Shown here: piece by piece, positions 230-12,339 of the stretch
Numbering within the stretch: the first letter of the stretch is position 1
Layout: every line of letters begins with the position of its first letter
Source: Parcubacteria group bacterium
GTDB lineage: Bacteria; Patescibacteriota; Minisyncoccia; Phycocordibacterales; DATDWN01
Length of the DNA: 41,355 nt
Direction of reading: 5' to 3'
Assembly (NCBI GenBank): GCA_046599035.1
Contig: JBKJHK010000003.1
Location: forward strand, 1-41,355
Notes under the pieces: model-generated
Seen by the model: the letters and a program-made list of their open reading frames with translations, nothing else
Told to the model about the DNA's origin: nothing
Database searches by the model: none
Position numbers and translations under genes: made by a program

Positions 230-277
230 GTTTGATTAGTATACCAGATACCTATTTCAAGTCAACTGTATTCCAGT

Positions 278-394
278 AACTTTCACAATCTGGATGAAAT
301 CCGCGGCGGACAAGAAAAATATTTGTAGACGTACTCGTTGTACGGCGGAAAATATTTTTTGCAGTCCAACAAAGGAGTTCGCCAGATTTGGAAG
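278..394. repeat. palindromic intergenic repeat, family A subfamily i, copy A1 (about 117 nt)
   Basis: The termini AACTTTCACAATCTGGATGAAATCCG and GAGTTCGCCAGATTTGGAAGTT are about 80% reverse-complementary to each other. They match copy A3 at 24/26 and 19/22 positions. The core is self-complementary (AAAAATATT..CGTAC-TCGTT-GTACG..AATATTTTT). The element ends on the rplK stop codon. Confidence 0.6.
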
Positions 395-817
395 TTACTT
401 CACGTCCACGCCCATTGAGCGAGCAGATCCAGCAATAATCTTCATCGCCGCTTCCACATCATGAGCATTGAGATCTACCATTTTCTTTTCTGCAATCTCC
501 TTGAGCTGAGCTCTGGTGAGCGTACCGATCTTTGAAGTCGCATTTTTACCTGAACCCTTTTCTTTTCCAAGCGCTTTCAAGATGAGACTTGATGCTGGTG
601 GAGTTTTAAGTACAAAGGTAAATGTTCGGTCTTCGTATACTGTAATTTCTACAGGTACGATATCACCCATCATCTTTGAGGTCGCATCGTTAAATTGCTT
701 TACGAACTCACCAATCGCAACACCTGCCTGTCCAAGAGCTGGACCGACTGGAGGAGCTGGGTTTGCTTTACCCGCAGGGATAACGAGTTTTAGTTTTTTT
801 GTTATTTTTTTAGCCAT
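395..817 (-). CDS. rplK: 50S ribosomal protein L11
   Basis: 140 aa with the conserved L11 N-terminal motif [17 protein letters not shown] and full-length similarity. It lies downstream of nusG as in the canonical cluster. Confidence 0.97.
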
Positions 818-865
818 AGTATTTTTGGAATTTTAATTAAAATCCCGAGAAGCGCGGGAAACGAC

Positions 866-894
866 ACTATACATTGTTTTTGAACTAAATTCAA
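866..894 (-). promoter_or_regulatory. candidate sigma70-type promoter for rplK
   Basis: On the minus strand, TTGAAT (889-894) is followed by a 17-nt spacer and TATAGT (866-871). The predicted leader contains a small hairpin, UCCCG-CGCUUCU-CGGGA plus UUUU (843-859), about 25 nt before the ATG. Confidence 0.4.
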
Positions 895-920
895 CTTACC
901 TTAAAATTGGAAGTTTTTAA

Positions 921-1038
921 AATAGCAAAATTTGAGCAAAGTTCTAGGCGGACTAGGAATTTGAGTGGAGGCGTACTAATGTACGATGACAATCAAATTG
1001 CCGACGTCCAACAACGAAATTTGCCAAATTTGGGTATT
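921..1038. repeat. palindromic intergenic repeat, family A subfamily ii, copy A2 (about 118 nt)
   Basis: The arms AATAGCAAAATTTGAGCAAAGTTCTAGGCGGAC and GTCCAACAACGAAATTTGCCAAATTTGGGTATT are mutually complementary. Stretches of 20/20 and 19/19 nt are identical to the inverted copy A4. The core hairpin is AATTTGA..CGTAC-TAAT-GTACG..TCAAATT. The element abuts the nusG stop codon. A partial extra arm, AAAATTGGAAGTTTTT, lies at 904-919. Confidence 0.55.
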
Positions 1039-1584
1039 TTAACTTTTTCGAACTTGGAGGAAGTCGAGTTCGACAGGAGTCTCTCGCCCAAACATAGCAA
1101 CAAGCACCTTCACCTTACCTCGCTCTTCATCGACATCTGACACCTTACCTTCAAGGTCTTTGAACGGTCCGTCAACAATAGAAACCATATCACCCACTAT
1201 AAGATCGATCTTGTGTTTCGCTGTGTGTGCATTCATACGAGCAAAGAGAGAGTCCACTTCTTTCTTGTCTACAGGCACTGGAAATACTCCAGATCCGACG
1301 AACCCAGTCACACGAGGAGTATTTCGCACCACATACCATGAATCGTCGGTTACGATCATATCTACAAGTACATAGCCCGGATAGATTTTTTCCTCTTCTT
1401 CTACTCGCTTGCCACCTTTGATCTTGATCTTTTTTTCAACAGGAACGACAACATCAAAGATCTTGTCTTCCATAGCTAAAGACTCGATACGCTGCTTCAA
1501 GTTTCTCTGCACCGCATTTTCATATCCTGCATATGTATGGATCACGTACCAATTGCGACCCTCGCCGATTTGTTGTTTTGACAT
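1039..1584 (-). CDS. nusG: transcription termination/antitermination factor NusG
   Basis: 181 aa with an NGN-domain start (WYVIHTYAGYENAV) and a C-terminal KOW motif (GDMVSIVDGPFKDLEGKV). Gene order is secE-nusG-rplK. Confidence 0.95.
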   Translation of the reverse strand: MSKQQIGEGRNWYVIHTYAGYENAVQRNLKQRIESLAMEDKIFDVVVPVEKKIKIKGGKRVEEEEKIYPGYVLVDMIVTDDSWYVVRNTPRVTGFVGSGVFPVPVDKKEVDSLFARMNAHTAKHKIDLIVGDMVSIVDGPFKDLEGKVSDVDEERGKVKVLVAMFGRETPVELDFLQVRKS

Positions 1585-1593
1585 AGTGTTAAA

Positions 1594-1626
1594 TAGAAGT
1601 TAGATAATAGAAGTTAGAAGTAAGAG
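1594..1626. repeat. short heptamer-type tandem repeat (AGAAGTT-like), copy C1
   Basis: TAGAAGTTAGATAATAGAAGTTAGAAGTAAGAG fills the 43-nt secE-nusG spacer. It is homologous to the longer array at 40240-40302. Confidence 0.5.
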
Positions 1627-1627
1627 A

Positions 1628-1807
1628 TTAGAGAACAAATTTTTCTAATACAATCTTGAAAATGTAGTCAAACAATCCGAGAAAAAATGCTACACCAAAA
1701 GAGACGAGAATCACGACGACCGTAAAGACTATTGCTTGGCCGCGAGTTGGCCATGTCACATGTTTAAGTTCCACTTGTGTTTCTTTGAAGTATTGTATAA
1801 GGCTCAT
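1628..1807 (-). CDS. secE: preprotein translocase subunit SecE
   Basis: A 59-aa ORF below the track cutoff. Hand translation is MSLIQYFKETQVELKHVTWPTRGQAIVFTVVVILVSFGVAFFLGLFDYIFKIVLEKFVL. It has the SecE-type E..KV.WP motif and one TM segment, and lies directly upstream of nusG. Confidence 0.85.
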   Translation of the reverse strand: MSLIQYFKETQVELKHVTWPTRGQAIVFTVVVILVSFGVAFFLGLFDYIFKIVLEKFVL

Positions 1808-1915
1808 AATTTTGGTTTGAAAAAAGCCCCCTTGGGCCGATTAATATGTATATATAATACTCTTCCTCATGTTAGATGTCAATAGAACTATACCAAGAAA
1901 AATTATATGAGAAAA

Positions 1916-1948
1916 GCCCAGCTTCAGTTTTTTAGACTGAGGCTGGGC
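1916..1948 (-). terminator. intrinsic terminator after the GC-rich orphan gene
   Basis: A 13-bp stem, GCCCAGCCUCAGU/ACUGAAGCUGGGC, with one mismatch. On the minus strand it is followed by UUUUCUC. Confidence 0.6.
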
Positions 1949-1997
1949 CGAAATTTGGGGCGGAAGGATCAAAGGATCCAATGATTGATTTGAGCGA

Positions 1998-2750
1998 CTA
2001 AGTACCCGAGGTCTCAGATAAGTCGCAGAAGCACAGAAGGCAAAAGCCGTCACTCCAGAAACCCCCGAAGCTGACGAGGTCGAACACGAAGTCACCACCG
2101 GAGTACGCGTGCACATAAGGCATCCTGTGGTCGCCGTCGCCGAACCAAAGCGCATCTTTCTCGTCAAAGGAGATGGACCACTTACCTTTCGGTAGGCTGG
2201 CCTTACCTTGTTCGTATGCGAGACTTGCGCCTTGCGCACCGACGAGCAGGCCGTTCTCGGACTTGATTTTGACGAGACACTCTTCTGAGCTCACCGACTT
2301 CCCAGACTTGATCCCGAAGATCTTGACCTGGAATTTCCGACCGGGCGCAAGCTGGATTGTCGCCTTGCCGAAGTTCGCGTCGGTGATGTTCTCGTTGTAG
2401 TAGTAGAACTGTTTCTTTTTTTCTTCAGTTTCTACTTCCGGCTGGTACACCGCTTTGAAGTCGGTCAAGCGAGTGGAGTGGTTGTAGCCATCCGGAACCG
2501 TGAGTTGAAACGTCGTGAGAAGTTCAAACTTGTCAGGTCTCGGTTTCGGTGGAGTGACCACCACCATTTTTTGTTCGGTGATAATCGCTCCCTCCAATAC
2601 CTTTTGCAGAGTAGTGTTAACTGCGGCCGGATCAAGTCCGCCCGCTTTGTACTGACGAATGAGTTCCGGAATCCTATTTTCGAGTAGAATTTCCCATTCC
2701 TCTGCAGTCGGTTTTCTTTTAGCTACCGCCTCGACAACTTGAGTCGCCAT
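1998..2750 (-). CDS. hypothetical protein (250 aa), GC-rich relative to its neighbours
   Basis: A long ORF with an AGGAG RBS, its own consensus promoter and its own terminator. No family recognised. Line 2101-2160 counts 35/60 G+C, against 23/60 for a sample line in the RND gene. Confidence 0.7.
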   Translation of the reverse strand: MATQVVEAVAKRKPTAEEWEILLENRIPELIRQYKAGGLDPAAVNTTLQKVLEGAIITEQKMVVVTPPKPRPDKFELLTTFQLTVPDGYNHSTRLTDFKAVYQPEVETEEKKKQFYYYNENITDANFGKATIQLAPGRKFQVKIFGIKSGKSVSSEECLVKIKSENGLLVGAQGASLAYEQGKASLPKGKWSISFDEKDALWFGDGDHRMPYVHAYSGGDFVFDLVSFGGFWSDGFCLLCFCDLSETSGT

Positions 2751-2791
2751 ACGACAGTCTCCTTTCCGGGTTGACCGGATTTTCTATGTAT

Positions 2792-2820
2792 ATTATACAC
2801 CTAGCATACCTACTTGTCAA
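2792..2820 (-). promoter_or_regulatory. consensus sigma70 promoter for ORF 1998-2750
   Basis: On the minus strand, TTGACA (2815-2820), an exact 17-nt spacer and TATAAT (2792-2797). AGGAG lies 7 nt before the ATG. Confidence 0.6.
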
Positions 2821-2836
2821 GATGGTTGCACGTAGC

Positions 2837-2864
2837 AAAAAACGCCTCAGTTAAGGCGTTTTTT
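2837..2864. terminator. bidirectional-type intrinsic terminator
   Basis: AAAAAACGCCT-CAGTTA-AGGCGTTTTTT lies downstream of the SIMPL gene and repeat A3. Confidence 0.6.
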
Positions 2865-2884
2865 GGTAATTCTTACTTTCCTAA

Positions 2885-3004
2885 AACTTTCACAATTTGA
2901 ATGAAATCCGACGTGAGAAATTAAAAATACGAGGAGCCTTACTTAATGGTAAGGTGACGAGAATTTTTAATTTGGGAACGAGGAGTTCATCAAATTTGGA
3001 AGTT
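2885..3004. repeat. palindromic intergenic repeat, family A subfamily i, copy A3 (about 120 nt)
   Basis: The termini are the same as A1 (AACTTTCACAATTTGAATGAAATCCG and GAGTTCATCAAATTTGGAAGTT). The core is unrelated but self-complementary (AAATTAAAAAT..CCTTAC-TTAATG-GTAAGG..ATTTTTAATTT). It ends 4 nt from the stop codon at 3009. Confidence 0.6.
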
Positions 3005-3008
3005 TTAA

Positions 3009-7931: not shown

Positions 7932-8101
7932 TTTGAAATACAAAACTCGTCGAATCATATCTTTTGAGGTGAGAAGTCGTAATACGACTTCGTAAAACCT
8001 TGAACGTTTCGTAATCGAAAGGTGAAAGGTGTACTGTTCCTGTAAGGAAACGAGTGTACGGTTTCAAAAGGATGTGATGAGAAAGAGGTTTTGAATTCAA
8101 A
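7932..8101. repeat. palindromic intergenic repeat, family B, copy B1 (about 170 nt)
   Basis: The outer arms TTTGAAATACAAAACTC and GAGGTTTTGAATTCAAA are complementary, as are the inner arms TCATATCTTTTG and CAAAAGGATGTGA. There is an internal hairpin, GAAGTCGTAATACGACTTC. A 28-nt motif at 8071-8098 recurs at 10274-10301. The element abuts the stop codon at 8110. Confidence 0.5.
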
Positions 8102-8109
8102 GTATTGTA

Positions 8110-9465
8110 TCATTGCGGATCAAAGATCATCGTGCTTGTTGCTCCATTTAACAGACTTGTTATGCGTTTCCCTCCAAATATAGACGGTAGAATTCCTACA
8201 CCATTGCACCCTATATTATACATCAAAACTTTATTTTTTGGCTCAAATCCAATGCGTCGTATTCCGTTTGGAGTATAGCCCATAAGTCCGTGCCAGGTAA
8301 ATTTATAGGTGATAGATTTATCTGGATCCGCCTCATACGTCTTTCTCACGAATTGATCGATCTTTTCCCCCATTTCTTCAGGATAGAGTAGCTCATGCGA
8401 ATATGCATACTTATCTTCCACTGAAAGTTCTGGTCCTCCAACTGAAATCAGATTGTATTCTTTATTCCCTTCATATTCATATTGTCGCCTGGTAAGGTAG
8501 AAATACGGATCACGCAAAGAGAGATCAGGGTCTGTGAAATAACTAATCGCAATCGGCGGTTTACTTAACGGTTCCATATACCCAGACATATACCCGATTG
8601 TTCCATGGACACTCTCGTGGAATTTCGTATCAATATCAAGACCTGACTCATTTATAATAAGCAAATTCTCAAAACCATTGGTACAAAGAACAACCGTATC
8701 GGTTGTGACAGTGTGTAGCCCAGCCTCCAGAAGCGCTCGCTCATGTTTCAAAACTACTTTCTGGATCGGAGTATGCTCATAAATACTCAAGCGATCCTTG
8801 TATGTAGCTTGTAAATACCCTACCACTTCTTCGCAAAACAATGCACTGTTGATACAACCTTTTTGATAGGAAAGTACTGCACAAAAGGCAGTATCTTCCG
8901 TCTCAAGAAGAGACAGAACAAGTTCATTGGGAACAAGGGTATAAAAGTCTTTATATACTTCAGGAATACTATTCACAAAATCGGCTGATTCTGAAATACG
9001 AAATGTTTCCACGAGGAGCCCTGCCTCTTTGCGAGCCTGACTGTCTTCTAGATGGCTCAATACCTGGTCATACGAGGAAAATCCGGCATGACCCACGAAC
9101 CGTGAAAAAGGTATGTCGAGTCCCGCCTCGGTATACATGAGGTCTAAGAGAGTCCAGGTCTCTTCGATCGCTTTCTGTGCATCTCCTGATTTTTCTATCC
9201 CGAACTCCGAAACGATATCTGCAAATGAACGTTCGAAATAACTGACCACTTGCCCGGCATTGTGTCCTGTTGCTCCCCGTGCAATCTTATTTGCTTCGAT
9301 CAATACGATTTTTTTATCTGTTTCTCTCAGGAGAAAAAATGCGGTTGCAACTCCTGCGATTCCGCTCCCTACAACAGTTACATCCGTACTAATATCAGAA
9401 GAAAGTGTAGGAAAAAATTCCGTACGAGTTAGCTGATGTATCCACGGTGAATGATTTTGACTCAT
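8110..9465 (-). CDS. FAD-dependent oxidoreductase (DAO family)
   Basis: 451 aa with an N-terminal dinucleotide-binding motif (VTVVGSGIAGVATAFFL...IEAN...GATGHNAG). Confidence 0.9.
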   Translation of the reverse strand: MSQNHSPWIHQLTRTEFFPTLSSDISTDVTVVGSGIAGVATAFFLLRETDKKIVLIEANKIARGATGHNAGQVVSYFERSFADIVSEFGIEKSGDAQKAIEETWTLLDLMYTEAGLDIPFSRFVGHAGFSSYDQVLSHLEDSQARKEAGLLVETFRISESADFVNSIPEVYKDFYTLVPNELVLSLLETEDTAFCAVLSYQKGCINSALFCEEVVGYLQATYKDRLSIYEHTPIQKVVLKHERALLEAGLHTVTTDTVVLCTNGFENLLIINESGLDIDTKFHESVHGTIGYMSGYMEPLSKPPIAISYFTDPDLSLRDPYFYLTRRQYEYEGNKEYNLISVGGPELSVEDKYAYSHELLYPEEMGEKIDQFVRKTYEADPDKSITYKFTWHGLMGYTPNGIRRIGFEPKNKVLMYNIGCNGVGILPSIFGGKRITSLLNGATSTMIFDPQ

Positions 9466-9471
9466 AAAAGT

Positions 9472-9614
9472 TATATATTTGGCAAATTTCGTTGTTAAAC
9501 TTCAAAAAATATTCCTCACCAGCGCACTCAGGCTGGCTCGTAATATTTTCCTCGTTTGCCTAGAACTTTGCTCAAATCTATAACTTTTATCATACTATAT
9601 ATTTGGCAAATTTG
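9472..9614. repeat. family A subfamily ii copy A4 (inverted relative to A2) plus a partial second arm
   Basis: TTTGGCAAATTTCGTTGTT and GCCTAGAACTTTGCTCAAAT are identical to the reverse complement of the A2 arms. The core is unrelated but self-complementary (AAAATATT..CCAGC-GCACTCAG-GCTGG..AATATTTT). The 18-mer TATATATTTGGCAAATTT occurs at 9472-9489 and again at 9596-9613. Confidence 0.55.
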
Positions 9615-12072: not shown

Positions 12073-12339
12073 TTATATTTTTAGAGCACGCACCGCAAGA
12101 GCACGTGATAGCGCGAGCTTCTTTTCCCTTGGAAGCCTTTTGAGTTCAGCTTCGCGCCGACGCGCTTCTCCGAGGTTTTTTACTGTTTCTTTATATTTCA
12201 AAACGACTGGTCGACGTATCTTTGTATAGTGCGCACCACTTTTTAAATGATTGTGTGCGTAGAGGCGTTTTTCTAGGTCCGGAGTAGATCCTACATACAA
12301 AGTTTTATCCGCACATTCGAGAATATAGACTGTGTACAT
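12073..12339 (-). CDS. GIY-YIG domain protein (UPF0213-like)
   Basis: 88 aa with YTVYILECADKTLYVGSTPDLEKRLYAHN and a downstream RREAELK. Confidence 0.9.
   Translation of the reverse strand: MYTVYILECADKTLYVGSTPDLEKRLYAHNHLKSGAHYTKIRRPVVLKYKETVKNLGEARRREAELKRLPREKKLALSRALAVRALKI

Follow-up and report, generated by a model that had tools for sequence, protein, structure and literature searches.

Mosaic hairpin repeats at stop codons in a Parcubacteria genome: probably a lineage-wide family of non-autonomous elements propagated as single-stranded DNA

The first three kilobases of contig JBKJHK010000003.1, from a Parcubacteria group bacterium (assembly GCA_046599035.1), carry three long palindromic repeats lying against the ends of minus-strand genes: rplK, nusG and a gene of the SIMPL family. 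The stretch analysed, called the window below, comprises 41,355 nucleotides and is contig C20 of the genome that we designate G000 (692 kb in 56 contigs, 96% complete, 41.6% G+C); plus-strand coordinates are window positions. Relatives of its nusG place the organism in Candidatus Zambryskibacteria (Paceibacteria/Parcubacteria, CPR). An earlier note on this DNA had described the palindromes and their contact with stop codons. Both are real, and a fourth copy, inverted, lies farther on (Table 1).

Table 1. Copies of the hairpin element in the window, the stop codons they touch, and candidate remnants of further copies. The layers and tip types are described in the text.
Feature	Positions	Strand	Description
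Element copy 1	275-399	+	Type-A middle layer, tip type 1 (GTAGACGTAC..GTACGGCGGA)
rplK stop codon TAA	395-397	-	Within the outer stem of copy 1; pairs with TTA/TAA at 277-279, the opposite end of the hairpin
Element copy 2	917-1042	+	Type-A middle layer, tip type 2 (GGAGGCGTACTAATGTACGATGAC)
nusG stop codon	1039-1041	-	Within the outer stem of copy 2 (from sequence and open reading frame list)
Element copy 3	2882-3008	+	Type-A middle variant, tip type 4 (GAGCCTTAC..GTAAGGTGA)
SIMPL-family gene stop codon	3009-3011	-	Directly abuts the stem of copy 3
Element copy 4	9464-9591	-	Type A, tip type 3 (GAGCCAGCCTGAGTGCGCTGGTGAG); orientation opposite to copies 1 to 3
Putative remnant of an older element (gene-proximal end)	899-917	+	Reverse complement AAAACTTCCAATTTTAAGG; just beyond copy 2; read from the sequence
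Duplicate of one arm of copy 4, 18 nt	9596-9613	+	TATATATTTGGCAAATTT; outside the element; blastn 18/18

Each window copy folds as a single unbranched hairpin of 45-50 pairs, and copies 1 to 3 form long imperfect hairpins with minimum free energies of -40 to -50 kcal/mol. For copy 1 the values are -50.5 kcal/mol on the plus strand and -40.3 on the minus strand. The better-folding strand, here plus, is called the model strand of each copy and defines its orientation; the rplK mRNA carries the reverse complement of that of copy 1. This copy scores E=6.8e-28 with nhmmer and 113.8 bits with a covariance model (CM). The model 3' end of copy 4 lies 2 nt from the longest-ORF (open reading frame) start of the gene at 8110-9465, a sense placement of the 5'-UTR (untranslated region) type. 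The arm identities given by the earlier note were reproduced, at 24/26 between copies 1 and 3 and at 20/20 on both arms between copies 2 and 4.

The window copies belong to a large family. Searches with blastn from the four copies, iterated to closure, yielded about 50 loci in G000, and two nhmmer profiles yielded 63, of which 46 are full length, all 124-128 nt. A fold scan of intergenic DNA, independent of the profiles, found the same loci. The repeat occupies about 1% of G000. Several copies lie at contig ends, as expected of repeats that break assemblies, so that the family affects gene calling and contig breaks in metagenome-assembled genomes. Rfam returned no family match at E<=1, except one chance-level match below its gathering score, and no published description of the repeat was found in a literature search.

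The element is one long imperfect stem-loop made of four nested layers: an outer stem, a middle layer, an A/T-rich stem and a tip. The outer stem often reads AACTTTC../..GGAAGTT, and many alternatives exist. The middle layer, which holds a conserved purine-rich internal loop, is of type A (..GTTCGAGGCGGAC / GTCCAACAAAGAAAT..) or type B (..AAGGTCGCGTATAAAAT / ATTTTAGACGATGAGATT..). The tip is a 25-nt hairpin of four to five kinds. Type A was found with tips 1 to 5 in 2, 11, 7, 3 and 3 copies, and type B with tips 1 to 4 in 7, 2, 2 and 1 copies; both middle types combine with every main tip type. In blastn searches of G000, the core of copy 1 recurs at more than 10 places and those of copies 2 and 4 likewise; the core type of copy 3 is the exception, its tip type recurring in 4-5 copies.

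All layers therefore vary, termini included, each being drawn from a small re-assorting set. This does not fit the picture of conserved termini around unique, replaced cores that had been drawn from the window. That the cores are unrelated holds among the four window copies and fails across the genome, where core and tip types recur. Because the family is mosaic, sampling a few copies gives the appearance of conserved arms with unrelated cores; the exchange of layers between copies allows any two of them to have common arms yet unrelated cores. We considered whether tips are independent mini-elements nested into older hairpins, and rejected it, as tips were never found alone: 44 of 45 tip matches lie inside listed elements, and the remaining one falls in a weak, divergent nhmmer match (C10:2943-3016).

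A second repeat family was noticed beside these tips. It is about 85 nt long, has at least 13 copies in G000 and reads GTGAGAAGTGA..TCACTTCGCAAGACCTTGA-hairpin-AAAGGTGTAC-hairpin, with three small hairpins and no Rfam match. Its loci include window 7987-8046 and G000 C2:5648-5730, C13:9973-10049, C15:10463-10522 and C38:2035-2084, among others. Four of its copies lie within or next to the tip hairpin of a first-family element, three of them right after CGT.

Covariation was measured on 28 type-A copies, whose consensus hairpin has 38 pairs. Changes on both sides were found at 31 of these. Pairing was kept in 92.5% of cells, against 73.5% in shuffled alignments and 32-48% when partners were slid, and cells with a double change numbered 188 against 50 in shuffles (none of 500 shuffles reached as high). 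Such abundant compensatory variation, far above both kinds of control, agrees with the earlier suggestion that the structure is under constraint.

The fold is also strand-specific. All 46 full-length copies are more stable on the same strand (mean -50.1 versus -38.2 kcal/mol), an asymmetry partly inherited from a common ancestor, so that the 46 copies do not amount to 46 independent tests. An orientation-neutral alignment of arm to arm, read on the model strand, gave 153 mismatches of the G.T type versus 69 of the A.C type, and 434 purine-purine versus 46 pyrimidine-pyrimidine mismatches. Amid varying stems, the conserved purine-rich internal loops are constant, as is a GAG...TGA frame that encloses the tip.

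Placement depends on this orientation. An ORF of at least 80 codons terminates between -12 and +8 nt from the model 3' end in 29 of the 46 copies, whereas 2 of the 46 have such a terminus at the 5' end; a looser test, with ORFs of at least 50 codons, is passed by about 8% of random positions. Across the genome, the stop-codon contact described in the window is specific to one end of the element. The abutted stop codons, TAA in 19 cases, TAG in 11 and TGA in one, usually form the first base pairs of the stem. The genes concerned include those for L11, L14, L17, L33, S13, EF-Tu, EF-G, LepA, SecY, NusG, SSB, HU, FtsZ, MraZ and an RRM protein (some named from Pfam, others by eye). Orientation follows the gene that a copy abuts, also where two copies are only 1.5 kb from each other (C15:13976 and C15:15440), and is therefore not set by the direction of replication.

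In a less common placement, the model 3' end lies 17-60 nt upstream of a start codon. About ten copies are reversed relative to local transcription, and in seven of them the 3' end is 2-58 nt from the start of a downstream ORF. Five of these downstream genes resemble tuf, clpP, dnaK, ftsZ and a typA-like gene (from their N-termini, by eye), with true starts about 17-30 nt off. Copies in sense orientation in the 5' UTRs of four of these genes (tuf, clpP, dnaK and ftsZ) would yield transcripts of the model strand, and structured RNAs are known for the pattern seen here: conserved internal loops rich in purines, a GAG...UGA motif at the tip, and stems that covary. The repeats could on these grounds be a dispersed family of antisense small-RNA genes, transcribed from the better-folding strand. 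We hold this to be the least probable of the explanations considered: no conserved promoter lies in or beside the element, the flanks are unrelated, operons running in a single direction offer nothing to drive antisense transcription, and Rfam knows no such RNA.

Elements are gained and lost at orthologous sites. After nusG, an element is present in G000, G001, G003 and G004, with differing module sets (that of window copy 3 is the one found at this site in G001 and G004), and absent from G006 and G021. After rplK, G000 and G004 have an element and G001 has none. Just after rplK, G003 (L018) and G006 (L016) have in common a GC-rich insert of about 85 nt instead of the hairpin element, reading ..CGAGCCGGA..GAGGCGGGC.CGCGCAACTTTTCA.TAGAAAAGTATGTGTG.. 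Only 3 of the 80 species whose nusG regions were compared have the element near nusG, so that this site is not ancient.

Queries made by joining the flanks of 43 elements revealed at least 15 sites that are empty in G001 and/or G006, with flanks 70-95% conserved. No palindrome is present at clean empty sites (ATGTAAG|AAATAT for C49:15173, for example), so that the outer stem belongs to the element; its derivation from a palindromic target was rejected. The motif TA(A/G)...(C/T)TA is common at element ends, though not universal. At the site of C4:5126, G006 retains a 44-nt derivative made of the outer arms only.

Other sites are filled in both species with a different interior, type A versus type B at C48:4173 and C15:12647, or with an element in reversed orientation (C27:3328), and some shared sites are occupied by an unrelated palindromic family. 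The idea put forward in the earlier note, of a mobile hairpin element that diversifies its core, fits both the presence and absence of elements and the replacement of modules at orthologous sites. At loci L134 (G006:C21:17800-17980), L136, L138 and L139, other palindromic families occupy gene-end sites that in G000 carry an element of the first family; among them are a family rich in TACGAAT units and an A/T-rich palindrome of the AAATTT type.

Within the window, two short sequences outside the copies may bear traces of former elements. Read as its reverse complement, the segment at 899-917 has the same first 11 nt as the start of copy 3, and we infer that the segment marks an earlier insertion at the nusG stop codon. 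The arm duplicate next to copy 4 is probably the remnant of a second copy. Read in this way, both would point to repeated arrivals at one place.

By BLAST, 19 of 24 genomes in the taxonomic family of G000 carry the repeat, and no match came from 16 other families of the order. With the CM, full-length matches of 124-128 nt were obtained in 23 of 150 other genomes of the class, in a patchy distribution over more than a dozen families. In one genome of the class, G168, all 18 CM matches (contigs C1, C2, C3, C5 and C6) are on the plus strand over more than 200 kb, which suggests a very strong gene-strand bias in that genome.

Could the repeat serve the host as an RNA hairpin in the 3' UTR, protecting the mRNA from 3' exonucleases, marking processing sites, or coupling a stop codon to the next start codon in translation? 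Its position, after the stop codon and before the next promoter or terminator, means that the element is transcribed with the gene; the mRNA-sense strand still folds, at about -38 kcal/mol; and length is uniform. Many of the abutted genes (those listed above apart from LepA, MraZ and the RRM protein) are highly expressed housekeeping genes, and some copies, such as C9:1268, exactly span the gap between stop and start. Against this, an abutted gene runs into the element, so that its mRNA carries the weaker-folding reverse complement, and it is on the opposite strand that all 46 copies fold better and that wobble and purine-purine mismatches accumulate. Sister species have the same genes without the element, and the sites carry interchangeable, even unrelated, hairpin families. 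A 3'-UTR stabiliser or 3'-UTR-derived small RNA, both proposed earlier, is weakened by these results, and we consider such a role unlikely. Since the element folds best on the strand complementary to the abutting gene's mRNA, folded single-stranded DNA (ssDNA) is the most likely constrained form, and a 3'-UTR RNA a less likely one.

Strong termination can be set aside, as elements sit within ribosomal-protein operons. It had also been proposed that a separate hairpin terminator follows each window copy. For copy 3 this stands, the downstream hairpin at 2836-2865 having the appearance of a plain, classical terminator. It does not stand for copies 1 and 2, where a promoter-like box precedes the hairpin (200-231 and 843-859, respectively). 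On the minus strand, window 843-894 and 200-265 contain the promoter-like boxes TTGAAT-17-TATAGT and TTGACT-16-TATACT, each followed immediately by a hairpin and a T-run, and the layout of box, hairpin and T-run upstream of rplK is kept across the genus. Instead of terminating the upstream gene, these two hairpins may belong to the next transcription unit as 5' leader hairpins or attenuators.

From family size and architecture to placement and turnover, the repeats look to us like a lineage-wide family of non-autonomous, hairpin-forming DNA elements of about 125 bp, most likely propagated through ssDNA, a reading to which we give a probability of roughly 0.6. In behaviour they would be REPIN-like or MITE-like, and probably members of neither group. 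Under this reading, folded ssDNA would be used in propagation, as it is with REP/REPIN sequences, the ends of IS200/IS605 elements or attC sites. Landing would occur repeatedly with one particular end on the stop codon of the incoming gene, TAA or TAG supplying the first pairs of the stem. Recombination between copies would swap layers and so yield the mosaics, and, over the time in which species diverge, elements would appear, disappear and have their interiors replaced. Mobilisation would fall to a host enzyme or to one that has escaped recognition.

Several observations weigh against such a mobile element. The closest pair of copies in G000 is only about 89-91% identical, with no sign of a recent burst. 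The swapping of whole modules would also produce covariation between arms, which is for that reason not by itself proof of selection on the fold. Filled and empty pairs (C49:15173, C40:6496 and C4:5126 versus G001 and G006) show no clean target-site duplication. To our knowledge, no ssDNA transposition chemistry explains an exact anchoring on stop codons. Finally, no enzyme among the families searched could be tied to the repeat: the two candidates, a Y1 transposase and a small GIY-YIG nuclease, are each missing from genomes that bear it. No Y1_Tnp match exists in repeat-bearing G021 (at least 28 repeat matches), G007, G008, G016 and G023, and the small GIY-YIG gene is absent from repeat-bearing G001, G002, G003, G005 and G019.

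The Y1 candidates are two RAYT-like ORFs of G000, C49:2878-3597 (minus strand) and C49:23576-24265 (plus strand), which match Y1_Tnp above its cut-off. If the hairpins were REP doublets mobilised by these two enzymes, one would have a REPIN-RAYT system, for which the long-hairpin architecture and strand-specific fold are suitable (PMC3116915). Tip type 1 moreover begins with GTAG, the tag of one REP superfamily (PMC3733652), and the best NCBIfam match of both ORFs is the REP-associated tyrosine transposase. This match reaches 40-48 bits for a cut-off of 80, GTAG is found in tip type 1 only, the other tips having GGAG or CGAG, and the arms of the element are no REP hairpins in themselves. Private short hairpins, found only there, flank the RAYT-like genes, the nearest family members being more than 3 kb away, and such genes are common in genomes without the repeat. 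The link was rejected on flanks and co-occurrence, and the system is largely refuted by the latter, which makes it a highly improbable explanation; the RAYT or IS200 connection that the earlier note had raised ends with genes that are present and unlinked to the repeat. Beside the second RAYT-like gene lie three copies of ATCAACCCG(A/T)CGGGTTGAT, a hairpin occurring nowhere else in G000.

The GIY-YIG gene (window 12073-12339, minus strand) encodes an 88-aa single-domain protein of Ssn-like size in a tight operon. It has no flanking repeat copies. The SRM motif HGTCWY..RNCYNB (PMC11893778) has 3 matches versus 0-3 in shuffles, and none in the elements. A link to Ssn-type nucleases was rejected, the motif being absent from the elements and co-occurrence lacking.

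A reverse transcriptase, TnpB-type, IS110, DDE_3 and rve proteins gave no match in the 96%-complete G000 (other DDE families were not searched), and no DUF559 gene is present there. In G021, a search for an autonomous, gene-carrying form between split arms found no arm pair enclosing a gene, and fragments only.

The sole tyrosine recombinase of G000 is Xer-like. It could be imagined to act on the elements as attC-like, structure-specific sites, the folded anti-mRNA strand being its substrate and interiors or whole elements being exchanged. Post-ORF position, fold of the opposite strand, AAC...GTT-type ends in many copies, a variable palindromic centre and the size range are all common to the element and attC, and interiors are indeed replaced between conserved outer arms at orthologous sites. 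The enzyme, however, scores 137 bits on the integron-integrase model (integrase_gron) for a cut-off of 265, many outer stems have no AAC/GTT, and the elements follow dispersed housekeeping genes rather than forming cassette arrays. We rejected the integron reading on the nature of this recombinase, and find attC-like exchange by it very unlikely.

One further proposal develops the preferred reading of an ssDNA-propagated element. The repeats might be mobile modules of gene ends that form a new class: ssDNA hairpins, folded strand-specifically, that need no dedicated transposase. Functions of the host in replication or recombination, such as template switching at hairpins or its Xer enzyme, would copy or exchange them; they would be directed to stop sites, where they would rebuild the stop codon, and their nested layers would be shuffled somewhat like cassettes. 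This is a tentative idea, with a small chance of being right.

Patescibacteria genomes are among the smallest and most streamlined, and it was unexpected that about 1% of this one should consist of a hairpin repeat without a recognisable mobilising enzyme. The repeat turns over between sister species and sits at the stop codons of core genes, among them those for ribosomal proteins, elongation factors, SSB, HU and FtsZ. Learning how such a repeat moves and is tolerated at these places could uncover a new route of transposition or recombination, or a structure-specific ssDNA-binding activity. The CM built here is a ready marker of the family across the class.

One more structure of G000 attracted attention. 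At C52:15-162, the very start of a 4.4-kb contig, lies a perfect 72-bp inverted repeat (148 nt, -129 kcal/mol), which may have arisen as a fold-back artefact of assembly or may be the terminus of a linear element with hairpin ends.

The element can be likened to REPINs, to ERIC and Correia miniature inverted-repeat transposable elements (MITEs) and to attC sites in different respects, but departs from each of them in defining features. Like the REPIN/RAYT system (PMC3116915, PMC3337134), it consists of extragenic hairpins of about 100 nt, present in tens to hundreds of copies, with a strand-specific fold, a population-like sequence diversity in which pairing is kept, and a spread through a whole lineage (here family-wide by BLAST and patchy in the class). 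It differs in having no cognate RAYT, whether flanking or co-occurring, in forming one continuous unbranched hairpin with a single tip instead of two inverted REP units tagged GTAG/CGTC, in placing one end on stop codons, and in its high site turnover between congeners. Ssn proteins are ssDNA nucleases of the GIY-YIG type that are associated with NTS/SRM hairpin repeats (PMC11893778). Strand-specific ssDNA hairpin repeats around genes are common to both cases, and the window has a small single-domain GIY-YIG gene; here, in contrast, the SRM motif is unenriched and absent from elements, and that gene is neither repeat-flanked nor co-occurring.

Integron attC sites lie directly after ORFs, fold on the strand opposite to the coding strand, and have conserved ends around a variable self-complementary centre, over 57-141 nt. 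The element resembles them in its position directly downstream of ORFs, in its opposite-strand fold, and in having conserved ends and a variable self-complementary centre, but it comes with no integron integrase, attI or cassette array, and its neighbours are core housekeeping genes. The ERIC and Correia (CREE/NEMIS; Neisseria) repeats are MITE-like imperfect palindromes of transcribed intergenic regions, found near gene ends, with variants that carry internal insertions, and are co-transcribed as RNA hairpins. Our element is likewise an imperfect palindrome over its whole length, near gene ends in transcribed intergenic space, with internal-insertion variants and a co-transcribed RNA hairpin. 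It is also of nearly the same length as the 127-bp ERIC/IRU repeat units of Enterobacteria (PMC2759123). Terminal inverted repeats are present as in classical MITEs, the ends often being AACTTTC...GGAAGTT. Unlike in the ERIC and Correia cases, no TA duplication is shown and no parent IS or DDE transposase was found (among DDE families, DDE_3 and rve were searched), orientation follows the abutted gene, the strand of better fold is antisense, and stem layers re-assort combinatorially. The BOX repeats of Streptococcus pneumoniae and the BIMEs of E. coli are modular or mosaic repeats built from small sets of modules. A small module set in varied combinations is what we see here too, but the modules are nested, paired stem layers of one hairpin rather than linear boxes, and the total length remains constant.

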